A DNA stretch of 64,000 bases. Origin: an uncultured Clostridia bacterium. Its GTDB lineage: Bacteria; Bacillota; Clostridia; Christensenellales; UBA3700. Below are positions 199 through 23,660 of this stretch, in pieces (within the stretch, counting starts at the first letter, position 1; each line of letters begins with the position of its first letter). The stretch spans positions 56,119 through 120,118 of the forward strand of contig CALGRX010000020.1 in assembly GCA_937880755.1 (NCBI GenBank), read 5' to 3'. Made by a program: the position numbers and the translations under genes. The notes under the pieces are model-generated. The model worked only from the letters and a program-made list of their open reading frames with translations, searched no databases and had not been told where the DNA came from.

Positions 199-2100
199 TT
201 ATTGACATGCAAAAAACGCTACGGTTTTTTTCTTAATTTTTGCCCCGGCGGCAGGCACTTGATAGACGACCTTGCCACTATCTCCGCTTATCTCGCAATC
301 TATGCCTAGACTTTTGAGTGTTGCACTCGCTTCGGCAAGCGGTTTATCCATCAGGTCGGGCATGACAATCTCTTCGTTGAGATGCTTTTCGTTGCCTTCG
401 AAGTGAGGCTCTATACCTTTGTAGGCAAATATATCGGCAAAAATCGCGCCAACGTAAGGGGCGGCAACTATACTGCCGTAATATACGTAGCCTTGCGGTT
501 CGTCTACCAGCATAAGACATACCAAAGTATCGTCGCCCACGTCGGCAAATCCGATAAAGGAGGATATATATTTACCCCTCGCAATAGCGCCGTTTTCGTA
601 CTTTTGCGCAGTGCCGGTCTTACCGCCGATGCTGTACCCCGCAACCCTAGCATTCTTTCCGCTGCCTTCTTCTACTACCTTGTACAAATACTGCTTCAGC
701 GTTTGGCTGGTTTGCTCGCTGACGGTGCGGGTTTTGGGCGACGGATTGACCTTGTACGCCACTCGTCCCGCCTCGTCTACTATGCTATCCACCACGGTTG
801 GAGTATATAGATATCCGCCGTTGAGCACGGAGCATACCGCAGTCGCTAACTGAATAGGCGTAACGGCAACTGCTTGACCGAATCCTATACGCGCAAGGTC
901 TACGTTTTTGACCTTGGTGCGGTCAATCAGCAGTCCTTTTGCCTCTCCGCTTTGGTCTATACCCGTCTTTTGTCCCAGCCCGAAAGCATCGAAATACTCG
1001 TAGGTTTTTTCACAACCAACCGACAAAGCAATATCCATAAACACGCAGTTGCAAGAGTTTTTTATGCCTTCTTCAAAATTTTGAGAGCCGTGTCCTATGC
1101 TTCGCCAACACTTGATGCGTTGACCGTCCACCGTCGCCGAGCCACCGCAATAATAGGATTTTTTGATTTTGTTTTGCTCAATACCTATGGCGGAAGTGAG
1201 AATTTTGAAAGTTGAGCCCGGCTCGTACACGTCGGTTATTATCGTGTTGCGAGAGCCTTGCAACAATAGTTGCATATCGTCACGAGGTATGTCGTTGAGG
1301 TCGTAGGTCGGAGATACGGATATTGCCTTGACCTGTCCCGTCTTGGCGCTCATCACTATGCAGCTCGCCGACTTACTTTGATACTTTAATTGCGCTTGAG
1401 AGGTAGCCCTTTGCGCAAAGGACTGTATGTTAGAATCTATCGACAATTGGACTCTCATACCCTTGACGCCGTCTTGATAATACGTTACTCCTCCCGCCAA
1501 TTTTTTCCCTACGAGGTCGGTTGGCGTATAGGTTGCGCCGTCCACGCCCTTGAGGTATTGGTCGTAATATTGTTCTATACCGCTCTGTCCCACGCCGTCC
1601 ACGTTGGTAAAGCCCAAAAGTTGCGTTAGGAAGTTGCCGAGAGGATATCGTCTTTCGCTGTCTGCCGTGAGGTATAGTCCGTCCACGTCAAGGCTAATCA
1701 ATTTTATCATTTGACTTCTTGTCAGCTGCTTGGCTACGGTAATCTCAGACACTCCCTTCTTGGTCAATTTTTGATAGAGCTTTTCACTGTCAATATCTAC
1801 GATTGAGGACAATCGGACTGCAAGAGCCTTGATATCCTTCAATTCGTTGGGACGAGCGTACAAAGTGTACACCGTATTACTCTCGGCAAGTACGACGCCG
1901 TTGCAATCGACTATCTCGCCTCTGTCTGCTCTCATGGGCAAATCTCTCGTCCATTGGCTAAATGCCTTGACTTTTAGACTACCCCCTTGGATTATTTGCA
2001 CGTAAAATAATCTTGCTACCAATCCAATAAAACAAAAGACCACCAGCAAGAGCGTTGCCAGCAGTCTTTTTTTGATAGACGTATGTGTAATTTTGTTCAC
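199..2100 (-). CDS. Class B penicillin-binding protein (FtsI/PBP2B/SpoVD-like transpeptidase) with one C-terminal PASTA domain
   Basis: 633 aa with GTG start 6 nt after GGAGGT and an N-terminal TM anchor. Motifs present: STFK, SCN, KTGT. The C-terminal PASTA-like segment is MPDLMDKPLAEASATLKSLGIDCEISG. dcw position. Confidence 0.9.
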   Translation of the reverse strand: MNKITHTSIKKRLLATLLLVVFCFIGLVARLFYVQIIQGGSLKVKAFSQWTRDLPMRADRGEIVDCNGVVLAESNTVYTLYARPNELKDIKALAVRLSSIVDIDSEKLYQKLTKKGVSEITVAKQLTRSQMIKLISLDVDGLYLTADSERRYPLGNFLTQLLGFTNVDGVGQSGIEQYYDQYLKGVDGATYTPTDLVGKKLAGGVTYYQDGVKGMRVQLSIDSNIQSFAQRATSQAQLKYQSKSASCIVMSAKTGQVKAISVSPTYDLNDIPRDDMQLLLQGSRNTIITDVYEPGSTFKILTSAIGIEQNKIKKSYYCGGSATVDGQRIKCWRSIGHGSQNFEEGIKNSCNCVFMDIALSVGCEKTYEYFDAFGLGQKTGIDQSGEAKGLLIDRTKVKNVDLARIGFGQAVAVTPIQLATAVCSVLNGGYLYTPTVVDSIVDEAGRVAYKVNPSPKTRTVSEQTSQTLKQYLYKVVEEGSGKNARVAGYSIGGKTGTAQKYENGAIARGKYISSFIGFADVGDDTLVCLMLVDEPQGYVYYGSIVAAPYVGAIFADIFAYKGIEPHFEGNEKHLNEEIVMPDLMDKPLAEASATLKSLGIDCEISGDSGKVVYQVPAAGAKIKKKTVAFFACQ

Positions 2101-2199
2101 GCTGACCTCCGATATCGTTATATCTTATGAGCGACGTCGGCGGTTTATTTAGAAATTTGATTTTAATAAATTATTTGATATTTTGATTTTTAATTTTTT

Positions 2200-2233
2200 G
2201 CAAAAAAAATACCTCTCTAACTAGTAGAGAGGT
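2200..2233 (-). terminator. Rho-independent terminator-like hairpin between the ftsL-slot gene and the PBP gene
   Basis: On the minus strand, CCTCTCT-actagtt-AGAGAGG (2212-2232) is followed by an 8-T run (plus-strand A run 2202-2209). Confidence 0.6.
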
Positions 2234-2239
2234 GGCTTG

Positions 2240-2935
2240 TTATCCCAATACCTTAGCAATAGAATCGCAAAGATTGTCAAATCCGCCCGTTGTGGTATCG
2301 TAATCGTATTGAATTACGTTGTCCATAGGTTGCAATTCTATCACGTTGCCATCGGCGTCAACTGCGTATCCAATTGCTTCTTCGTTGTAGGTTACGTTGT
2401 CCTCAACGCTTGCGGAAACTGCTCCCGTGCCGGCAGTTGCCATATTGATTATCAACAACGTTGCGATAACGGCTACGATAAAGAAGTATACGCAAATCAT
2501 CATTTTTGCCTTTGTATTGAGCTTGGACTTCTTTTTGGCGTTGGTTTTATTGCTATTGTTGACGTTTTGGTTCATTGCAGGGTTTTGTCTTACGTAGCCC
2601 TCGCTGTTGTCGCGATAATAATATCCCGAATTCTCTTGTGGGCGAGCGTAATCGGCGCTTGCTTGAGCATAACTATCTTGATAACGATATCCTGCTTCGT
2701 AGTTTTGATTGTAATCGCGTGCATATGTATTATAATTATTGTACGCTTGTTCATAATAACGATTTTGGTAGTCGTTTTGATAGTTATTCTGATAATATCC
2801 GTTGTCGTTAGCGTTGTCGTCATAGCTTTGGGTATATCCGCTTTGTCCGTATGCAGAATTGTAATATGCAAAATTATTGACGTCGTTTTCATACGTGCTT
2901 TGTTCGTATTTTTCTCTTTCCATCAATTTGTTCAT
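2240..2935 (-). CDS. Hypothetical bitopic membrane protein in the ftsL position; N/Y/Q-rich cytoplasmic domain, one TM, small extracellular domain
   Basis: 231 aa; ATG is preceded by AAGGAG. About 135 aa are rich in N, Y and Q, followed by KKKSKLNTKAK, the TM MMICVYFFIVAVIATLLIINMA and about 65 aa outside. It sits between rsmH and the PBP. Confidence 0.75.
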   Translation of the reverse strand: MNKLMEREKYEQSTYENDVNNFAYYNSAYGQSGYTQSYDDNANDNGYYQNNYQNDYQNRYYEQAYNNYNTYARDYNQNYEAGYRYQDSYAQASADYARPQENSGYYYRDNSEGYVRQNPAMNQNVNNSNKTNAKKKSKLNTKAKMMICVYFFIVAVIATLLIINMATAGTGAVSASVEDNVTYNEEAIGYAVDADGNVIELQPMDNVIQYDYDTTTGGFDNLCDSIAKVLG

Positions 2936-2951
2936 ATCTCTTCTCCTTTGG

Positions 2952-3884
2952 CTATATTTTTTGCGCTATTCTCAACTTGGCGCTAGATGCTCTACTGTTG
3001 TTTTGCAACTCTTGCTCGCTAGCCACGATAGGTTTTTTGGTGATAATCTCTATCTCTTTGACCTTGTCGCAAGTGCAAATTGGTTGTTGCGGAGGACATA
3101 TACAGTCCTTTTCGAGGTATTGAAAAGCCCTTTTGACTATCCTATCCTCTAGCGAGTGGAAGGTGATAACGCATATCCTTCCGCCAACCTTGAGTCTTCT
3201 TGCAAGTCCCTCTACTATCGTATCAAGTCCGCTAAGCTCTCCGTTGACCTCTATTCTTATCGCCTGAAAGGTTCTTTTACAAGGATTTCCGCCCTTCCAT
3301 CTAAGCTTTGCAGGATAAGAATTTTCTACTATCTCGGCAAGCTCGCCCGTAGTTGTTATTTTTTGTTTTGATCTGGCAACTACGATATTGTGAGCAATTC
3401 TTCTTGCAAGTCTATCATCACCGTATTGGTATATGACGTCGGCAAGCTCTTCTTCGTCGTATTCGTTGACCACTTCCATTGCGCTGAGGCGTTGGGATTG
3501 GTCCATTCTCATATCGAGAGGCGCGTCGCTGTTGTAGCTAAATCCCCTATCTGCGTTGTCGAGCTGGTAGGACGAAACGCCAAGGTCCAACAACACTCCG
3601 TCTATTTGGTCTATCTCCATCTCGTCCAAGTGCGACAAAGAGTTTTTGAAGTCGTCGTGAACGTAGGTGATTTTTTCTCTATACGGTGACAGTCTTACCA
3701 TCGTGCTCTCTATCGCTTGAGCGTCCTTGTCGAAAGCTATGAGTCTTCCCGTCGTAAGGCGCTCGAGTATCTTTTCGCTGTGTCCGCCACCGCCCAACGT
3801 TCCGTCTACGTAAATTCCGTCGGGTTTGATATCCAAGCCTTGTATACATTCTTCAAGTAGTACGGGTACGTGTCTAAATTCCAT
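2952..3884 (-). CDS. rsmH: 16S rRNA (cytosine1402-N4)-methyltransferase RsmH/MraW
   Basis: 310 aa starting MEFRHVPVLLEE, with the SAM motif DGTLGGGGHS. Downstream of mraZ. Confidence 0.95.
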   Translation of the reverse strand: MEFRHVPVLLEECIQGLDIKPDGIYVDGTLGGGGHSEKILERLTTGRLIAFDKDAQAIESTMVRLSPYREKITYVHDDFKNSLSHLDEMEIDQIDGVLLDLGVSSYQLDNADRGFSYNSDAPLDMRMDQSQRLSAMEVVNEYDEEELADVIYQYGDDRLARRIAHNIVVARSKQKITTTGELAEIVENSYPAKLRWKGGNPCKRTFQAIRIEVNGELSGLDTIVEGLARRLKVGGRICVITFHSLEDRIVKRAFQYLEKDCICPPQQPICTCDKVKEIEIITKKPIVASEQELQNNSRASSAKLRIAQKI

Positions 3885-3886
3885 AA

Positions 3887-4339
3887 CTAAAACGTAATCT
3901 CCTCACCAAGTTGAGCAATGATTGCATCGTAAGACATATTGCTACTAAACTTCTCGTTCTCTTCTTCCCACTTGGCTTTGCCCCAAATCTCTATCTTGTT
4001 GCCCATACCTACGAAGACGACTTCTTTGCCTATCCCCAAGGTTTGCTTCAATTCGCTTGGCAAAGTAAATCTTCCTTGTCCGTCTTCTTTGATTTCGTTG
4101 ATATTAGAATAGATTTGTCTTGCTGCAAACGTAATCATATTTTCCGACAAGCCAATCTTCTTGCACAACTTCTCTTGAATTTCTTTGGCTTTTTCTTCCG
4201 AGATGATGCTGAGATAATCGGAGGCGTTCTTCATATAAAATATTTTTCCTTCGCCAAACTTACTGCGATACTTAGAAGGAATGCGATATCTTCCCTTCTC
4301 GTCCGCTTGCAAGCTTACCGTTCCGTAAAAACCTTCCAT
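3887..4339 (-). CDS. mraZ: Transcriptional regulator MraZ
   Basis: MraZ-like duplicated SpoVT/AbrB-type sequence (GRYRIPSKYR ... GRFTLPSELK). I chose the ATG at 4337-4339 because AGGAGGGG lies 4 nt upstream; the track start at 4357 has no RBS. Confidence 0.9.
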   Translation of the reverse strand: MEGFYGTVSLQADEKGRYRIPSKYRSKFGEGKIFYMKNASDYLSIISEEKAKEIQEKLCKKIGLSENMITFAARQIYSNINEIKEDGQGRFTLPSELKQTLGIGKEVVFVGMGNKIEIWGKAKWEEENEKFSSNMSYDAIIAQLGEEITF

Positions 4340-4368
4340 AAGACCCCTCCTTATCATTCTTCACTAAT

Positions 4369-4397
4369 ATAATAACAATAAAATTTGGGATTGTCAA
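4369..4397 (-). promoter_or_regulatory. Putative sigma-A promoter of mraZ (TTGACA-17-TATTAT)
   Basis: Minus strand: TTGACA (4392-4397), 17 nt spacer atcccaaattttattgt, TATTAT (4369-4374); about 30 nt upstream of the mraZ start. Confidence 0.5.
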
Positions 4398-4406
4398 TAA
4401 CAATTT

Positions 4407-4421
4407 TCCACTTTTTTCCAC
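4407..4421 (-). promoter_or_regulatory. Two direct GTGGA(A)AAA repeats with 10 bp periodicity just upstream of the -35; candidate MraZ-binding repeats
   Basis: The minus strand reads cGTGGAaaaaaGTGGAaaattgttaTTGACA. MraZ operators described elsewhere are short G-rich direct repeats at 10 bp periodicity. Confidence 0.35.
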
Positions 4422-4909
4422 GATATAAAAACAAACATATGTTTATAAAGCATATTTTGTGTTAAAATAATATTTTTAGCACAATATATTGTGTTTTAGG
4501 TGTGGAAAATCGTATTTTTTTGTAAAAAAATCCCAAAAAAATTTTTTATTTTTTTCTAAAAATAATCTTGAAAATATCGTATTATTTATCCAAATTTCAA
4601 TATTGGTGGTAAAAATCCCAAATTATCGTCTAATTCCCAAAATTCATTTTTCAGTATCCCAAAACCTTACATCTTGCTACCCTTCATAGAACAAAAGCGA
4701 GTTAGCGTGTTACCGTTAAGAAAATTTCACAAGAATAAGAAAAATAGCTCACTAATTAGCAGGGAAGTGAGCTTATTTTGGTTGTATTGTATACTAGCGT
4801 TGCAAACACTGATATTATATTTACTTTAACTTTCCGATAGAAAAATATCACCTTGCATTCAGCAAAATATCACGCCGAAGGCATATCGCTTGTCACAATG
4901 CAAATAGTT

Positions 4910-4943
4910 GTGGCGTAGCGATAAACCCCTATCGCTACGCCAC
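4910..4943 (-). terminator. 13 bp stem hairpin downstream of the metallophosphoesterase gene (weak U tract)
   Basis: GTGGCGTAGCGAT-aaacccct-ATCGCTACGCCAC lies 35 nt after the stop at 4979. The trailing sequence is only moderately T-rich. Confidence 0.45.
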
Positions 4944-4978
4944 TTAAAGTCGCCTTTATAATATTTACGTATCAATAA

Positions 4979-5668
4979 TTATAGTTCTTTGAGCAATACT
5001 AAGTTGTTGTCTACCAAGTCGCAAGACGACAAGTAGTACGGTATACCGTCTATCTCAACACACTTGACTGCCCTGCAATCCTTGCCGTGAAGATGACCGT
5101 ACACCACCGCATCAACGTTATGTTCACTCAACAAACGAGTAAAATCATTTTCTTTCATATTGACGTCAAAGGGCGGATAATGACACATTGCAACAACCCA
5201 ATCACCCTCTTGTCTCATTTTTTCCATTTTTTCCAACGATAATTGAAGCCTCAGGCACTCTCTATTGATAATCTTATCGTCCTTATCCGCTCCGCTAAGC
5301 GCCCACAGTCTCGAGCCACATACGAGCGCCCTACCGACTCTAACGCAGTCGTTTTGCAGACACAATACGCTACTATCAATGATAGATTTGACTTTACTTA
5401 GCGATGACCACCAATAGTCGTGATTGCCCTTGATGATAACCTTAGTTCCTTTTAGGTATGCTAGTTGGTCTAGGTCGGGTTTAGCTTCTTCTAACGACAT
5501 ACCCCAACTCAAATCACCACACAAAAGCACGAGGTCGTCGTCACCAACCTTGACGGCCCAATCGGCTTTGATTTTTTCCCAATAGCCTTCCCAACTACTG
5601 CCGAAGATATCCATCGGCTTGTTGCAAGCGCTTGAGAGGTGTAAGTCGCTTATCGCAAATACCTTCAT
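4979..5668 (-). CDS. Calcineurin-like metallophosphoesterase
   Basis: Starts MKVFAISDLHLS, with GDLSW, GNHDYW and GHLH motifs. The ATG at 5666-5668 is preceded by GGAAGG; the track start at 5680 is TTG inside the RBS. Confidence 0.8.
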   Translation of the reverse strand: MKVFAISDLHLSSACNKPMDIFGSSWEGYWEKIKADWAVKVGDDDLVLLCGDLSWGMSLEEAKPDLDQLAYLKGTKVIIKGNHDYWWSSLSKVKSIIDSSVLCLQNDCVRVGRALVCGSRLWALSGADKDDKIINRECLRLQLSLEKMEKMRQEGDWVVAMCHYPPFDVNMKENDFTRLLSEHNVDAVVYGHLHGKDCRAVKCVEIDGIPYYLSSCDLVDNNLVLLKEL

Positions 5669-5920
5669 TTTACCTTCCAATATTCAATTATGTTAATTTA
5701 CACCGTATCACTAGACACGCTCAGTCATACGCGTCTATTGCCTTACGTTGACGGATAAAATAACTTTTCGTAGCTCTAATACGTTTTGCTATGTAGTTGA
5801 GTTTTTAACTAACCTCAACTATTCAACTTTTAATTATCAAAAATAATTATTGTTTATATATTTTGCAATATTATTATATTTTTTAAGCTATTTTAGAACT
5901 AAATATTCCAAAATAACTGC

Positions 5921-6514
5921 CTACGCGTTAGTAAGCAATCCTTCCATTCTATCCAAAGCTTGCGCCAATCCTTGCTTATTTTGACAAGAAATAACGACTA
6001 TATCATCCACTCCAACGGCAAGAGCCGAAGCAATAATTTGCTTTTGTTTGGCTTGTTGCATCTTGGAGAGTTTGTCGCCTTTAGTGGCAATTATTGCAAA
6101 AGGCAAGTGATAATAATGCAGGTACGCCACCATCTGTTTGTCGAGTGCGTCGGGCGTTCTTCTGATATCTATCAGCACCAATACCCCCGCTATTCTTCCA
6201 AATCTGTTGGCTAGATACCCTTCTATCATACTGCCCCACTTTTTCTTTTCGTTATCATCCACCTTAGCAAAGCCGTAGCCGGGCAAATCTACCAACATAA
6301 ACCGTCCGTCGTTGAAGTCAAAGTAGTTGATAAGCCTCGTTCTTCCGGGGGTTGACGAGGTCTTAGCAAGCCCCGATACTCCGGCTATCATATTGATAAA
6401 GGAAGACTTGCCTACGTTTGACTTGCCCGCAACCGCAATTTCGGGACAGCCGTAGTCCTTGCACGCTCTACTATCCGACTGTGAAACGACGAATTTTGCC
6501 TTTTTGATTATCAC
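5921..6514 (-). CDS. engB: Ribosome biogenesis GTPase YsxC/EngB (YihA)
   Basis: 197 aa with G1 GKSNVGKSS and G3 DLPGYG. It overlaps the lon stop by 4 nt, as in the tig-clpX-lon-ysxC arrangement of Firmicutes. Confidence 0.9.
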   Translation of the reverse strand: MIIKKAKFVVSQSDSRACKDYGCPEIAVAGKSNVGKSSFINMIAGVSGLAKTSSTPGRTRLINYFDFNDGRFMLVDLPGYGFAKVDDNEKKKWGSMIEGYLANRFGRIAGVLVLIDIRRTPDALDKQMVAYLHYYHLPFAIIATKGDKLSKMQQAKQKQIIASALAVGVDDIVVISCQNKQGLAQALDRMEGLLTNA

Positions 6515-8829
6515 AGCCTACCTCCAAATACTATATCGAAGGCTTCCTGCACGTTGCTTACCAACCTAACGTCAAGTTTTTCTTTTACTACGCTAGGCAT
6601 TTCGGCAAGGTCCTTTTCGTTTCTCGTAGGGATTATCACTTTACCAATGCCGTTTCTGACGCAAGCGAGCAGTTTTTCCTTGAGACCGCCTATAGGCAAC
6701 ACCTTGCCGCTAAGCGTAAGCTCTCCCGTCATTGCAACGTCGTTGTCTGCAGGGATTTGCGTATAAGCCGACAATAGCGAGCAAGCTATCGCTACGCCTG
6801 CCGATGGTCCGTCTTTTGGGGTAGCACCCTCGGGCGCGTGGATATGAACGTCGTTTTTGGTAAGCAAATCTTCACTCTTGCCCATAGTAGCCAATTTGTT
6901 TTTGACCACCGTCAAAGCAATCTTAGCAGACTCTTTCATCACGTCGCCCAAATTACCCGTCAAAGTCATATTACCCTTGCCAAAAGGTAGCAGTGTGCTC
7001 TCAATATTCATCACGACGCCGCCAACGCTCGTCCAAGCCAGTCCGTTGACTACCCCGCATTCTTTATCAAAATACTTCCCGCTACCGTCATACTTGGCTA
7101 CCCCTAGGTACTCGTCCAAGTCTTTAGCCTGCACGTGGAAGCGTTTTCCTTGACTATCTTGCTCAATATTAGCAACTTTCACGGCGATTTTTCGGCAAAT
7201 AGACGCTATTTGTCTGTCCAATTCTCTCACACCCGATTCGCTCGTGTATTTTTGGATTACACCCACCAATGCGTCGTCGTCAAACACAACCTCACACCCC
7301 GACAATCCGTTGTTGGCGATTTGCTGAGGCACAAGGTATCTTTTGGCAATTTCCAACTTCTCTTCTTGAGTATATCCGCTCATCTCTATCACTTCCATTC
7401 TGTCTAACAACGGTTGTTGGACGCCACTTAGAGTATTGGCTGTGATTATGAAAGTAACTTTGGACAAATCGTAAGGAATTTCCAAATAATGGTCTCTAAA
7501 ATACTTGTTTTGCTTAGGGTCAAGCACCTCGAGTAACGCGCTCGAAGGGTCGCCGCCCACGCCACTTCCTATCTTATCTATCTCGTCAAGCAAAAACAAA
7601 GGGTTAGAATATTTGATATCACACAGACTATGGATAATTCTGCCCGGCATTGCGCCGACGTAAGTTCTTCTATGTCCTCTGATTTCTGCTTCGTCCTTCA
7701 TTCCGCCAAGGCTCATCTGCACTAATTCTTTACCTACAGCCCTTGCAATAGAGCGCGCAATAGAAGTTTTACCCACCCCCGGTGGTCCTACAAGACACAA
7801 AATCGGCGCGTCAATCTCGGGAGCTAATTTTTTGACGGCTATGTATTCCAAGACTCTTTGCTTAACATTTTCTATGCCGTAGTGGTCCTCGTCCAAAATC
7901 TTGGCAGCCTTAGCAACGTCGTAGTCGTCTTCACCCATATTATCCCACGGCAAAGACAACGCCGTGTCCATATAATTGCATAGTATCGAATATTCCGGTG
8001 CCGAGGTAGGCAATTTTTCCATTTTCGACAAGTCGGATTTTAGTTTTGACTTTACTTTATCCGAGGCGTTGAGCTCTTCGACCCTCTTTCTATACACGTC
8101 CACGTCTTCGTCGTTGTCGCCGAGCTCGTCCTTTATAGCCTTGATACGCTCTCTCAATACGTAGTCGCGTTGACCTTGCTCAATCCTTTCGTTGACTATA
8201 TTGTCGACTCTTTTCATGACAAAGTAGTCGTTGAGAGCCTCTCTCATGAGCACCGTCGCCAACTCTACGCGAGCCAAAGAATCGTCCATTTCGATAACGT
8301 ACTGTCTTTGCTTGTCGGCAACACCCATCAAGACGATATTGATTTTTTCGTCCACGTTTTTTGCCGAGCGAAAAGCTTCCGCCAACTTTTTGATTTCTTT
8401 ATTGTTCTCTAAACTGAGGTATTCGTCAAAAATTTTATCAATCAGATGAAAATAACTCTCAATCAAAGGATTGTCGGAGTTGACGTAATCTAGTTGATTT
8501 ACGCTTGCCAAAGTAGGAGAATTATTCATAAATTCTACTACTTTACCTCTTACCTCACCAACCAATCTCCAATTATCGAGTCCTCTTAGTTTTTTGACGT
8601 TGCAAATCGTACCCGTCAAACAGCACTTACTCATAGTTGGCTCTTCTTGCACGGCTTGAATGCTCGTCGCCTTAAGCACTAATACTTTGCCTTGATACTT
8701 GTCTACAGCCGTAACGAAAGCCATATTTACGTAAGACTTTTTTGCCAAACATTCGTAGGTTTCAAAAGGAAAAATTGTATCTTCTAATGCCACTACCGGC
8801 AAAATTTTGCTATCCATTGTTATCTCCAA
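6511..8829 (-). CDS. lon: ATP-dependent Lon protease
   Basis: 772 aa with Walker A GPPGVGKTS and protease-domain catalytic Ser motif PKDGPSAG. Confidence 0.95.
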   Translation of the reverse strand: MEITMDSKILPVVALEDTIFPFETYECLAKKSYVNMAFVTAVDKYQGKVLVLKATSIQAVQEEPTMSKCCLTGTICNVKKLRGLDNWRLVGEVRGKVVEFMNNSPTLASVNQLDYVNSDNPLIESYFHLIDKIFDEYLSLENNKEIKKLAEAFRSAKNVDEKINIVLMGVADKQRQYVIEMDDSLARVELATVLMREALNDYFVMKRVDNIVNERIEQGQRDYVLRERIKAIKDELGDNDEDVDVYRKRVEELNASDKVKSKLKSDLSKMEKLPTSAPEYSILCNYMDTALSLPWDNMGEDDYDVAKAAKILDEDHYGIENVKQRVLEYIAVKKLAPEIDAPILCLVGPPGVGKTSIARSIARAVGKELVQMSLGGMKDEAEIRGHRRTYVGAMPGRIIHSLCDIKYSNPLFLLDEIDKIGSGVGGDPSSALLEVLDPKQNKYFRDHYLEIPYDLSKVTFIITANTLSGVQQPLLDRMEVIEMSGYTQEEKLEIAKRYLVPQQIANNGLSGCEVVFDDDALVGVIQKYTSESGVRELDRQIASICRKIAVKVANIEQDSQGKRFHVQAKDLDEYLGVAKYDGSGKYFDKECGVVNGLAWTSVGGVVMNIESTLLPFGKGNMTLTGNLGDVMKESAKIALTVVKNKLATMGKSEDLLTKNDVHIHAPEGATPKDGPSAGVAIACSLLSAYTQIPADNDVAMTGELTLSGKVLPIGGLKEKLLACVRNGIGKVIIPTRNEKDLAEMPSVVKEKLDVRLVSNVQEAFDIVFGGRL

Positions 8830-8863
8830 AAAATGCGAATAATTTTTATTATTCGCATTCCTA

Positions 8864-10105
8864 TCAAGCGGTTTTTCTTTCGATTATCGGTTTTTGCTTG
8901 CGTTCGACAGCCTCTTTGGTGATAATGATTTTTTGTATCGTATCATCCATTGGAACGTCGTACATAAGGTCAAGCATCACGCCTTCTAGTATCGACTTCA
9001 AGCCTCTAGCGCCCGTATTCAGCTTGATTGCTTGCTTAGCAACCTCTTTCAATGCGTCCTCTTGGAATTCCAACTCCACGTTGTCCATACCGAAGAGTTT
9101 GGCGTATTGTTTGACAGGCGCGTTTTTCGGCTGAGTCAAAATGTTGATAAGAGCCTTTTCGTCAAGCGCGTCGATACCCACTACGATAGGCACACGGCCG
9201 ACAAACTCAGGTATTAGTCCAAACTTGATAAGGTCGTCAGGTCTAATATCTCTAATCAATTCGCCGTAGTTGGCGTTTTTGCCCGTCTTGACGTTGGCGC
9301 CAAAACCGAGTGTAGAGCTATCTCTACGCTTGTCGATAATTTTGTCCAAACCCACGAACGCACCACCGCAAATAAAGAGTATGTTGGTAGTATCTATCAA
9401 TATATTCTCCTGTTGTGGATGCTTTCTTCCACCTTGAGGCGGAACGGCAGCAACGGTACTTTCGATAATCTTGAGCAAGGCTTGTTGCACGCCTTCGCCC
9501 GACACGTCTCTAGTGATAGACATATTCTCGCCTTTGCGGGCGATTTTGTCTATTTCGTCTATATAAATGATGCCGAGTTGCGCCCTTTCCACGTCGTAAT
9601 CGGCGGCTTGGATAAGCTTGAGCAAAATATTTTCTACGTCCTCGCCCACGTAGCCCGCCTCGGTTATAGTCGTAGCGTCAGCCACGGCAAAAGGCACGTT
9701 GAGAATTTTTGCCAGCGTTTTGGCTAGCAAAGTCTTACCGCAACCCGTAGGTCCCAGCATCAAAACGTTGCTCTTTTCGAGTTCCACGCCGTCCTCAGCG
9801 TCGGATATTATTCTTTTATAGTGATTGTAGACTGCAACGGACAGCACCTTTTTTGCGTCCTCTTGTCCAACTATATACTCGTCAAGCTTAGCCTTGATTT
9901 CGTGTGGTTTGAGCAAATTGACGGCAAAATCGCTCTTGTCGTTAGTCTTTTTGTCGTCCAAAGTTTCTTCGAGGATTTTTACACACGCGTCTACGCATTG
10001 GTCGCATATAAATACGCCGTCAGGTCCGCTGATGAGTTGTCCTACGTCACTTTCTTTTCTTCCGCAAAACGAACATCTCAATTCTCTATCGTTGTCCACT
10101 ATCAA
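8864..10105 (-). CDS. clpX: ATP-dependent Clp protease ATP-binding subunit ClpX
   Basis: 413 aa with N-terminal zinc ribbon CSFCGR...CDQC, Walker A GPTGCGKT and an IGF-like loop LGFG. Confidence 0.97.
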
Positions 10106-10683
10106 CCTCTTTTATAGAATATTTTGTCAATCAAGCCGTATTCAAGCGCATCTTGTGCCGACAGATAGTTATCTCTATCGGTGTCCTGCATAACTTTATC
10201 ATAGCTTTGATTGCAGTTTTCAGCCAAAATCGAAGCAAGTTTTTCTTTTGTTTTTTGGATATGATTAGCCGTGATAACTATATCGCTCGCCTGTCCTCTG
10301 GCACCACCCAATGGTTGGTGTATCATAACTTCGCTATTAGGCAAAGCGTATCTCTTACCCTTAGCGCCGGAAGATAGCAAGAATGCCCCCATCGACGCAG
10401 CCATACCCACGCAAATCGTACTAACGTCACACTTGATATATTGCATAGTATCGTATATGGCAAGTCCTGCGGTAACGCTTCCGCCCGGGCTGTTGATATA
10501 TATAGATATATCCTTATCCGAATCCTTAGCCTCCAAAAATATTAGTTGAGCTACGACGGTATTAGCCGTTTCGTCGGTAATTTCTCCCGATATAAATATT
10601 ATTCTATCTTCAAGCAAACGAGAATAAATATCGTAAGATCTCTCACCTGCACCCGTCTTATCAATAACGTAAGGTATAAGCAT
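10102..10683 (-). CDS. clpP: ATP-dependent Clp protease proteolytic subunit ClpP
   Basis: Ser-His-Asp family sequence ([17 protein letters not shown]). The start was moved to the ATG at 10681-10683, 7 nt after GGAGG; the 19 upstream codons in the track lack an RBS. Confidence 0.95.
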
Positions 10684-10749
10684 TTTCATTCCTCCAATTA
10701 TAAATTGACCGATAAGCCCGACAAGACTTATCGGTCGCAATTTGTAAGA

Positions 10750-12036
10750 TTATTTAATTGTGTTGTTGTTTTTGAGATAAGTAAACAGCTTGGTGGTAAC
10801 GAGGTCATTGCGAATATAATTTCTATATTCTTCGCTGATGAGTTTGTCGTATTCTTCAACGCTCTTACCTGCTTTACTTGCCATATCTGCGATTTGGTCG
10901 TTGACTTCTTCATCGCTAACGACGATTTTTACTTCTTTGAGAATAGCCTCGAGGACGAGTCTAAACAACACGTTCTTTTTAGCGGTATCACTGTACTTTT
11001 CCATCAATTCTTCTTTGGTAGTACCCGTAAACTTGTAATAATCGTCCTTATTCAAGCCTTGATACATAAGTCTATATTCGAACTCTTGCACCATCTCTGC
11101 GGCTTGTTGGTCAATCATACACTTAGGAATATCAACCTCGGACAAAGAAGCAATCTTTTCGATAATATCGTTTTCAAGCTTCGTCTCGGCGTCTTTTTCT
11201 TTGCTCTCCTTGATATTCTTCTTGATATCTGCTTCGTATTGAGCTACGGTATCGAACTCGGATACGTCTTTTACGAATTCGTCGTCGTAAGCAGGGGTAT
11301 TTTTGACGGTAATCTCGTGAAGTTTTACCTTAAATACAGCTTCTTTGCCCGCAAGCTCGGTTGCGCCGTAATTCTCAGGGAAAGTAACTACGATATCCTT
11401 TTCGTCGCCGATATTCATGCCGACGACTTGCTCTTCAAAGCCGGGTATAAACATACCGCTACCAATCTCCAAAGGTTGCATTTTGGCTGTGCCTCCCTCG
11501 AATTTTACCCCGTCTACGCTTCCGCTATAGTCTATGACGGTCTTGTCGCCATTTTGAACAGGTCTATCGGTTACGCTCTCCCAAGCGCCCGCAGCGTCAA
11601 GAGCCTTGTCTATTTCTTTTTGGATTTCTTCTTTAGTAACCTTTACTTTGTCCTTTTTGAATTCTAGTCCGGTGTATTGACCAAGCACTACTTCAGGCTT
11701 GAGTTGTACGGTTGCACTGTACTTCAAAGTAGAATCGCTAATTGCGATAATATCAATTTTTGGCATATCTACAGGGAACAGCTCGGTTTCCGCATCAATA
11801 ATTGCGCCGTAAGTCTTTGGAAGAATTGTATCCAATGCGTCGTCGAAAAATACTCCGACTCCGTATTGTGCTTCGATAACCTTGCGAGGCACTTTGCCCT
11901 TGCGGAAGCCACCGATTTGGAATTTGGACTTATTTTTGTTGTAAGCCTCTTCAATTGCGGCTTTCCAATCCGCTTCCTCGACCTCAACGGTAAATTTTAC
12001 ACGATTTTTTTCTAGCATTTCCTTTGTGTAGCTCAT
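10750..12036 (-). CDS. tig: Trigger factor (ribosome-associated PPIase chaperone)
   Basis: 428 aa with the ribosome-binding motif GFRKGKVP and a central FKBP-like domain. Upstream of clpP-clpX. Confidence 0.95.
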   Translation of the reverse strand: MSYTKEMLEKNRVKFTVEVEEADWKAAIEEAYNKNKSKFQIGGFRKGKVPRKVIEAQYGVGVFFDDALDTILPKTYGAIIDAETELFPVDMPKIDIIAISDSTLKYSATVQLKPEVVLGQYTGLEFKKDKVKVTKEEIQKEIDKALDAAGAWESVTDRPVQNGDKTVIDYSGSVDGVKFEGGTAKMQPLEIGSGMFIPGFEEQVVGMNIGDEKDIVVTFPENYGATELAGKEAVFKVKLHEITVKNTPAYDDEFVKDVSEFDTVAQYEADIKKNIKESKEKDAETKLENDIIEKIASLSEVDIPKCMIDQQAAEMVQEFEYRLMYQGLNKDDYYKFTGTTKEELMEKYSDTAKKNVLFRLVLEAILKEVKIVVSDEEVNDQIADMASKAGKSVEEYDKLISEEYRNYIRNDLVTTKLFTYLKNNNTIK

Positions 12037-23088: not shown

Positions 23089-23568
23089 TTATTCTGCTAG
23101 CAATCGCTCTTGCTCTGCCATAAAGTCCATATCGGCTTGCGATACGTACTTTTTGATATTTAGTCCGCTATCGAGCATACTCTGTAGCTCCGCTTTAGCA
23201 TCGTTTAGATATTGAGTCAAACTATCGTTTTGCTTGGCGATTTCTTCGGGCAAGTGAGTATTCACATAATCCGTCCACTTGCGCGCAAATTCGCTCAGTC
23301 TTTCGCCTTCTAAGCAATACCTGACCTTAGAGGCGTATTCGATATTGCGTGCCTTTTCCACTGCCATAGCAAGGGCAAGGCTTGCCTCTTCCCTCTTACT
23401 TTCATACTCTTTGACTTTCTTTTGCAATTCGGCTTTTTCTTGTTCCAAAGTCAAAATTCTATCCTTATGTTCTAGCAAAACCTTGTCGTAGCCGCCTGCT
23501 ATTTTTATCAAATATTCGTCCACTTCCTTGACGTCGTAGCCTTTTCTTCTTACCTTAAACTTTTCCAT
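23089..23568 (-). CDS. DivIVA-domain protein (coiled coil)
   Basis: The N-terminal DivIVA motif is FKVRRKGYDVKEVDEYL, followed by coiled coil. The ATG at 23566-23568 is preceded by GGAGGACG. Confidence 0.75.
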   Translation of the reverse strand: MEKFKVRRKGYDVKEVDEYLIKIAGGYDKVLLEHKDRILTLEQEKAELQKKVKEYESKREEASLALAMAVEKARNIEYASKVRYCLEGERLSEFARKWTDYVNTHLPEEIAKQNDSLTQYLNDAKAELQSMLDSGLNIKKYVSQADMDFMAEQERLLAE

Positions 23569-23660
23569 ACGTCCTCCTTGGTTTTGATTATACCCCAAAA
23601 TAAAAGATTGCTACCTAAGTAGCAACCCTTAATTTGTCGACAAGTGTCTTGTTTTGTCGG

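Follow-up and report, generated by a model that had tools for sequence, protein, structure and literature searches.

FtsL and the coil that it forms with FtsB/DivIC are regarded as an almost universal switch of septal peptidoglycan synthesis, and in the Bacillota the gene encoding FtsL is found between rsmH and the gene of a class B penicillin-binding protein (PBP), as in the case of CD630_26570 of C. difficile (PMC10693644). The subject of the present analysis is the gene, hereafter gene X, that occupies this ftsL slot of the dcw cluster in a 64,000-nucleotide stretch of DNA (the window) from an uncultured Clostridia bacterium of the Christensenellales (contig CALGRX010000020.1, positions 56,119 to 120,118). 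X is an open reading frame (ORF) of 231 amino acids with an ATG start, located at positions 2240..2935 of the minus strand, to which all the coordinates given below for the parts of X also refer, with the stop codon at 2240-2242. Its product shares with the Bacillota FtsL, in addition to the genetic location, a bitopic N-in/C-out topology, a basic juxtamembrane patch, a β-strand segment following the position of the "LGM" motif and a C-terminal amphipathic helix like that of many clostridial FtsL, its larger size being due to the N-terminal tail. Unlike these proteins, on the other hand, X has neither ~23 residues of the external coil nor the "A.ELGM" helix and carries at its C-terminus a family-specific motif, Y.Y.T.TNWFD..CD. 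Furthermore, the cytoplasmic tails of other Clostridia FtsL are 40–90 aa long, Arg-rich and contain 2–9% Tyr, whereas the tail of X has 130 aa, 21% of which are Tyr; the shorter Arg-rich tails of the other Clostridia imply that the Tyr-rich expansion is specific to the family of X, in which it is general, and is not the decoration of a single species.

Two other types of protein lend themselves to comparison with X. Prion-like low-complexity domains such as Sup35N and those of FUS/hnRNPA1 are disordered, rich in Tyr, Asn and Gln, almost devoid of aliphatic residues and endowed with evenly distributed aromatics, like the tail of X; even aromatic spacing combined with interchangeable polar spacers represents the "stickers-and-spacers" grammar of phase-separating prion-like domains. 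As to bacteria, a domain of the Clostridium botulinum Rho protein is a prion-like candidate (PMC4703818) and candidate prion-like domains were found in a survey to be enriched in cell-wall proteins (PMC4606120). The second term of comparison is MacP, the pneumococcal cofactor of aPBP2a, whose membrane-proximal Arg/Lys motif binds GpsB (bioRxiv 10.64898/2026.06.26.734906). Like X, MacP is small, crosses the membrane once and combines an N-terminal cytoplasmic domain that is mostly disordered with a basic motif close to the membrane; its target is a PBP. Unlike X, which has a 62-aa ectodomain, MacP is tail-anchored with an external end of 4 aa, is not rich in Tyr and is encoded outside the dcw cluster. 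The similarity of X to the MacP model (NF038277) amounts to E 0.41 and 11.1 bits, the cut-off being 45; X is therefore not a MacP.

The interpretation that we favor, and to which a probability of about 0.6 can be attributed, is that X is an FtsL orthologue remodelled within a Christensenellales lineage, namely a bitopic divisome protein, N-in/C-out, provided with a multivalent sticker tail. X and most of its family lack ~23 residues of the external coil and retain the transmembrane (TM) segment with its invariant Asn, the hairpin and the C-terminal amphipathic helix. What is new is an unannotated coil-less FtsL lineage having its own C-terminal motif and a selected, Tyr-patterned disordered cytoplasmic tail; literature searches turned up neither the X family nor an FtsL tail rich in Tyr. 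A gut Christensenellales lineage without the FtsL coil, whose dcw cluster still encodes FtsW, a class B PBP, FtsQ and FtsA, allows one to test which parts of FtsL are really needed, and the tail makes a condensate-like organization of the divisome directly testable. In addition, about 60 "hypothetical" clusters that are missed by the current FtsL models become annotatable as FtsL-like.

Relation of X to FtsL

When compared with the Pfam and NCBIfam models of FtsL/DivIC, those of FtsL being TIGR02209 (ftsL_broad), NF049847, NF053549, PF04999 and PF19579, X gave no match at E ≤ 1, and a hidden Markov model (HMM) built from 46 clostridial FtsL encoded in the same slot recognized nothing in the window, X included. 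DivIC/FtsB (PF04977) is likewise not what X is, there being neither a match to this profile nor a coil. Matches of X to PFF1_TM, Wzy, SAG1386 and MacP in the Pfam/NCBIfam searches were discarded as noise. The statement of a preliminary description of the locus, based on the letters of the DNA, that the slot holds something other than a canonical FtsL is therefore correct as far as X itself is concerned.

The external part of X agrees with this outcome. The TM helix (residues 145-169; 2429..2503) coincides with the best 19-residue hydropathy window, which begins at residue 145 and averages 2.96, and is the best defined element of an AlphaFold2 model obtained with a 66-sequence alignment (an earlier 8-sequence input had given a mean predicted local distance difference test score, pLDDT, of 42), in which residues 141-169 are helical with pLDDT 79-92. 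This helix stops at residue 169 instead of continuing beyond the membrane, no coiled coil is predicted in X, and a heptad check of the 62-aa ectodomain found no register with hydrophobic residues at both a and d, so that the short ectodomain without leucine-zipper heptads recognized in the preliminary description is a real feature. In place of the FtsL coiled coil there is a Gly/Ala/Ser-rich linker (residues 170-188; 2372..2428), ~23 residues shorter than the corresponding segment of the coil-bearing relatives described below and unstructured in the model (170-189). It is followed by a β hairpin, GYAVDADGNVIEL (residues 189-201; 2333..2371), which hhalign aligns with the post-"ELGM" segment and β strand of the same relatives and which is modelled with strands 190-192 and 198-200 (mean pLDDT of the block 191-200, 81), and by the C-terminal signature YDYDTTTGGFDNLCDSIAKVLG (residues 210-231; 2243..2308), which contains the family motif and ends as an amphipathic helix (residues 218-230, mean pLDDT of the block about 76). 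The external part contains 12 Asp/Glu and a single Lys/Arg and this distribution of charges, together with the lysine patch on the other side of the membrane, fits an N-in/C-out orientation. A Foldseek comparison of the model with the PDB returned no match at E < 1, as is to be expected of a mostly disordered model.

The link with FtsL emerges from the family of X. A profile of its TM segment and ectodomain, searched against 1.8 billion representative proteins, gave 70 hits at E ≤ 1e-3, about 60 of which are proteins of 170–313 aa matching at their C-terminal end. The search is driven by the motif Y.Y.T.TNWFD..CD, in which the clade of X itself has GG instead of NW, and the family so defined consists of about 60 clusters at 50% identity; the single named source of a more distant member is a Christensenellales metagenome-assembled genome (MAG), in which the protein is called "hypothetical". 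Among 58 X-type members the TM residues N164 and Y150 are conserved in 100% and 93% of the sequences, respectively, and in the C-terminal signature the conserved residues are F219 (100%), C223 (97%), D220 (95%) and D224 (90%). All members found on a readable contig, including the Y/R/D-rich P0045 and P0040 and the coil-bearing P0067 and P0071, occupy the same slot in the order mraZ-rsmH-X-bPBP (bPBP, class B PBP), an answer to the survey of the rsmH-PBP interval in related genomes that the preliminary description had recommended.

Six divergent members of this family (P0067, P0052, P0073, P0074, P0060 and P0071), whose ectodomains have ~90 aa, are coil-bearing; in these proteins the TM helix is followed by a heptad-like stretch, by the "A.ELGM...β strand" arrangement typical of FtsL and then by the C-terminal tail of the family. 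P0067 matches TIGR02209 over nearly its full length with E 3.5e-5 (23.6 bits) and NF049847 with 4.9e-4, P0052 matches TIGR02209, again over nearly the full length, with 4.5e-4 and the Pfam FtsL_2 model with 0.016, and P0074 matches FtsL_Actino with 0.03, all scores lying under the curated cut-offs. To place these values, the slot proteins of 80 metagenomic loci identified via RsmH were used as a control set, the 46 canonical slot FtsL being among the comparisons. Ordinary-looking clostridial FtsL encoded in the slot reach only 13.7–29 bits on TIGR02209, whose cut-off is 42.45, and since this is the range of the coil-bearing members, the latter are as FtsL-like as clostridial FtsL in general.

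Comparison of profiles by hhalign closes the chain. The coil-bearing group aligns with the 46 canonical slot FtsL with 97.5% probability (E 2e-11), and the X-type group (58 sequences) aligns with the coil-bearing group with 99.8% probability (E 1.9e-27) over 96 columns, with a gap of ~23 residues at the coil/"A.ELG" segment. Furthermore, the HMM of canonical FtsL finds 6 of the 6 coil-bearing members, and that of the coil-bearing group finds X at E 1.7e-15. The assessment of the preliminary description is thus to be refined, in the sense that X is not canonical and yet is FtsL-derived by way of the coil-bearing members. X is best read as a derived variant rather than a standard member of FtsL, reached only through these intermediates; it is filed in this way because it fails both the coil, which is the defining structural feature of FtsL, and the profiles.

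The forms found in the family are graded, with some members having a coil, most lacking it, and one related slot protein being left with an ectodomain of 40 aa only. The latter, encoded at locus L020 (from 4056, 263 aa), has a Q-rich tail of 204 aa and is directly followed by the PBP gene; its ectodomain has neither a coil nor the NWFD tail and represents an even more reduced FtsL ectodomain. As to the clostridial slot FtsL of the comparison (L024-L097), they too are left unnamed by the TIGR02209 cut-off; many have a C-terminal amphipathic helix and many an N-tail motif Y..GN.A..P. The C-terminal tail of the X family may be an elaborated version of this terminal helix. A search of PDB sequences with the coil-bearing profile produced a match to cavin, which was rejected as a coiled-coil chance hit.

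The cytoplasmic tail

The cytoplasmic part of X described in the preliminary report (residues 1-140; 2515..2935) begins with a short motif, MNKLMEREKY (residues 1-10; 2906..2935), identified in the family alignment and overlapping a weak helix of the AlphaFold2 model (residues 4-12, pLDDT <50). The disordered tail (residues 11-133; 2537..2905) follows, rich in Y, N and Q and having Tyr at a quasi-regular spacing of 4 residues, and then the juxtamembrane lysine patch KKKSKLNTKAK (residues 134-144; 2504..2536), which satisfies the positive-inside rule. Residues 1-135 are modelled as disordered, with pLDDT mostly <50 (<50 for residues 7-111 and 51-55 for residues 111-130). Composition, hydropathy and AlphaFold2 are therefore all in keeping with the succession of Y/N/Q-rich tail, lysine patch and single TM helix that had been read from the sequence.

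Residues 21-135 consist of Y (21%), N (20%), Q (10%), A (10%), S (7%) and D (7%), the sum of N, Q, Y, S and G in the tail being 63%, and only 3 of the 113 residues between positions 21 and 133 are I, L, V or M. The abundance of Tyr sets X apart from its surroundings, the densest 40-aa segment containing 13 of them, compared with ≤8 in every other ORF of the window. The term "prion-like" that had been applied to this region is fair as a description, and borderline as a classification. In its Tyr and Asn content the tail is similar to Sup35N, but 18–19% of its residues are charged (D/E/R/K), far more than the ~4% of Sup35N, and a rough PAPA-type score peaks at 0.059 near residue 52, the threshold being 0.05. 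Two further properties distinguish the tail from the prion-like low-complexity domains, namely its attachment to the membrane as part of a divisome subunit and the exchange, in relatives, of N/Q for R/D/E.

The arrangement of the aromatic residues is non-random. As many as 10 of the 25 Tyr-to-Tyr gaps of X are of exactly 4 residues, and the coefficient of variation of the aromatic spacing, compared with that of 1000 shuffles per protein, shows the spacing of X to be more even than that of its shuffled versions (p 0.022). The same test, applied to the family, finds tails more evenly spaced than random in 53 of 60 representatives, with a mean z of -1.1. Across the family the aromatics account for 8–22% of the tail and the spacers are rich in N/Q or, depending on the lineage, in R/D/E, Tyr being kept even in the R/D-rich (GC-richer) versions. 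The tails are disordered, vary in length from 85 to 230 aa and are present in nearly every one of the ~60 clusters, so that the suggestion that the domain might turn out to be absent from close relatives, and hence a simple lineage-specific decoration, has found no support. The tail of X appears to be a clear bacterial case of a selected grammar of aromatic "stickers" in a membrane protein.

Selection is indicated by the close orthologues. Seven close homologues of X have 44–97% identity, two of which are from named sources, both Christensenellales MAGs in which they are labelled "hypothetical", and seven X loci are present in species-representative genomes. Their alignment reveals a lysine patch and a TM helix that are almost invariant (KKKSK, N140, K142, A143 and K144 are invariant in the clade), a conserved ectodomain and a tail that evolves fast and yet keeps its Tyr. 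The ratio of non-synonymous to synonymous substitution (dN/dS), calculated by the Nei-Gojobori method between X and its three closest orthologues (L004-L006), is 0.12–0.16 for the cytoplasmic tail, 0.02–0.08 for the lysine patch plus TM segment and 0.09–0.12 for the ectodomain. From the value of the tail it follows that this frame is the one translated and that the tail is subject to purifying selection; judged by its substitution pattern, X is a genuine gene.

Short motifs are embedded in, or flank, the low-complexity region. The N-terminal motif conforms to the family pattern M-x(1-3)-hydrophobic-x-[E/R/K]-[R/K]-[E/D/Q] (consensus of 66 sequences, MxxxxER), a loose charged-triad version of which is found among the initial 16 residues in 50 of 66 members, and the basic patch is common to the family, K144 being conserved in 95% of the 58 X-type members. 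The motif NSEGYVRQNP (residues 110-119) is conserved in the clade and invariant in 8 orthologues. A second cytoplasmic motif, [D/E]-x-L-[W/Y/F]-x-[R/K/E]-L, represented by DELWNRL, EDLWNRL and HELYERL, recurs in divergent tails (P0049, P0050, P0055, P0056, P0057, P0065, P0069 and P0073, as well as the slot proteins of L020 and L021) and is absent from X.

Possible functions and alternative readings

How might such a protein work at the septum? Contacts of X with the FtsW-bPBP synthase, as well as with DivIB or DivIC, would still be made through the TM helix and the ectodomain of hairpin plus helix, the C-terminal helix making up for the lost coil. In proteobacterial FtsQLB complexes of known structure, FtsL has at the corresponding place a strand that joins the FtsB/FtsQ sheet, and by analogy the hairpin of X would dock in a similar manner. 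As to the 130-aa cytoplasmic tail, it could be a disordered "stickers-and-spacers" region whose evenly distributed Tyr would provide weak multivalent self- or hetero-association, and the conserved N-terminal motif and the lysine patch could bind a cytoplasmic division partner, e.g., FtsA, FtsZ or an adaptor of the DivIVA/GpsB type. Tyr-mediated association and partner binding would together concentrate or regulate the septal synthase complexes. Multivalent, sticker-type association at the divisome is the function of the tail that we infer and favor.

Several points weigh against this interpretation. X matches no FtsL/DivIC model and the direct hhalign comparison of the X-type profile with canonical FtsL is not significant, so that homology rests on the intermediates and on synteny; what X-type and coil-bearing members have in common is for the most part the TM region and the tail, a situation that could have arisen also by domain shuffling. 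The search for FtsL spans 64 kb of the genome, which could contain a second, canonical ftsL elsewhere, and DivIC was not located. The AlphaFold2 model of X is only moderately confident, with the exception of the TM helix. The combined Stouffer Z of the aromatic spacing (-8.5) treats related members as independent and overstates their independence, although the tails are mutually unalignable. Finally, the FtsL encoded in the dcw cluster of C. difficile serves sporulation septation and not vegetative division (PMC10693644), which means that the cellular process served by X is an assumption.

The main rival is a tail working as an adaptor of the MacP/GpsB type, that is, a flexible tether for regulation that does not condense and in which short motifs recruit one partner, Tyr being incidental or needed for solubility or compaction; we deem this unlikely, albeit worth serious consideration. 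The motifs in question would be the N-terminal M..L.ERE, the juxtamembrane lysine patch and, possibly, phosphorylatable Tyr/Ser/Thr, and the conservation of the motif at the very N-terminus and of the lysine patch is what an adaptor would require. Moreover, the disordered region of MacP is mostly dispensable and its membrane-proximal motif is required (bioRxiv 10.64898/2026.06.26.734906), and the window encodes a DivIVA-domain protein (23089..23598, minus strand). The similarity to the MacP model is weak in the coil-bearing P0073 (E 8e-5) and weaker in X, a hit far under the cut-off, and an adaptor leaves unexplained why the aromatic content and even spacing should persist while the chemistry of the spacers changes and why purifying selection should act along the whole tail.

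A bolder version of the sticker interpretation holds that the external coil between FtsL and FtsB/DivIC, commonly considered the universal core of the FtsQLB regulator and its signalling rod, has been given up and that its assembly role has passed to the cytoplasmic side, where the membrane-anchored Tyr-sticker tail would bring about a condensate-like clustering of FtsW-bPBP at the septum. Were it true, a bacterial divisome would be organized in part by a two-dimensional, phase-separating FtsL tail; we regard it as speculative and rather doubtful.

An instability function is improbable. FtsL of B. subtilis is an unstable checkpoint protein whose turnover depends on its cytoplasmic N-terminus and on RasP, and X could by the same token be a short-lived, dose-limiting division protein having in its tail a determinant of proteolysis. 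A disordered N-terminal tail is plausible as an entry site for a protease and the terminator-like hairpin located after X (see below) suggests an expression controlled separately from that of the PBP; a few residues suffice for a degron, however, not 100–200 aa with patterned Tyr, and the data contain no pointer to a protease site.

That the tail is a functionless, neutral low-complexity expansion resulting from compositional drift or slippage is very improbable. Its lack of alignability beyond close relatives and its variable length are what neutrality would produce, and the codons of Asn and Tyr are AT-rich in a genome of 45% GC. These properties have to be reconciled with the dN/dS of the tail, with the presence of the latter in nearly all of the ~60 clusters, with the non-random spacing of the aromatics and with the persistence of Tyr in R/D-rich versions. 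A recent repeat expansion was rejected as the origin of the tail, since Tandem Repeats Finder detected no DNA repeat in this region of X. As to the one apparent short form that was checked (P0040, 109 aa), a natural tail-less version was ruled out, for what is present is an in-frame stop within a normal Tyr-rich tail on a contig of 2.5x coverage; the stop in this locus (L016, 1875..2604) is either a sequencing error or the mark of a pseudogene.

Non-orthologous displacement, by which a protein unrelated to FtsL would have taken the slot while the true FtsL is elsewhere or dispensable, can draw on the failure of X and of its profile to match the FtsL models directly, fits the data poorly, like neutral expansion, and is extremely improbable, given that the coil-bearing proteins of the same slot are FtsL homologues sharing TM region, hairpin region and tail with X and that no FtsL-like ORF was found within the window.

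Organization of the locus

Gene X is preceded by a good ribosome-binding site, AAAGGAG (2943..2949, minus strand), read from the sequence, whose GGAG end lies 7 nt ahead of the ATG, within the 16-nt spacer that separates the start codon of X from the stop of rsmH (2952..3884, minus strand; PF01795, E 7e-125). The single ORF with a good ribosome-binding site reported for the interval between rsmH and the class B PBP is thus reproduced. The PBP gene itself (199..2100, minus strand) encodes the Pfam domains PBP_dimer, Transpeptidase and PASTA, and its product scores 589 bits on TIGR02214 (spoVD_pbp), under the 688-bit cut-off. An antisense ORF of 249 aa (2237..2986, plus strand) mirrors the low-complexity Tyr/Asn codons, has no support and was discarded as an artefact.

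Between X and the PBP gene there is an AT-rich gap of 139 nt, preceded by a strong hairpin followed by a T-run that resembles an intrinsic terminator (2202..2233, minus strand) and begins 6 nt past the stop codon of X. A hairpin occurs at the same site after X in the relatives L001 (6708-6737) and L006 (6707-6730), the sequences of the stems being different. This putative terminator suggests that mraZ-rsmH-X is transcriptionally separate from the PBP and mur genes. Directly upstream of mraZ (3887..4357), which lies upstream of rsmH-X, a near-consensus promoter of the sigma-70 type is found (4369..4397, minus strand), with TTGACA, a 17-nt spacer, TATTAT and an extended TG, and it is probably the promoter of the dcw cluster.

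The DivIVA-domain protein mentioned above has 169 aa (PF05103, E 1e-6) and could act in the cytoplasm as partner or adaptor of division proteins in the membrane.

The gene order in close relatives is mraZ-rsmH-X-bPBP-murE-mraY-murD-ftsW. The window covers 64 kb of the genome of X and the order of the downstream part of the cluster is taken from the close relative L098, in which the subsequent genes of the cluster are a murA-like gene, ftsQ/divIB (POTRA_1, E 3e-7) and ftsA; the remaining division machinery thus looks conventional. The murA-like gene of L098 (17720..18970; EPSP_synthase family) is placed between ftsW and ftsQ, a position usually occupied by murG. Upstream of mraZ, between 985 and 7979 (985..7979), L098 contains, as identified with Pfam, the genes for trigger factor, clpP, clpX, lon, a GTPase of the engB type and a metallophosphoesterase; the ORFs of the window at 4979..12036 (minus strand) agree with this segment in order and length, the Pfam labels being those of L098.

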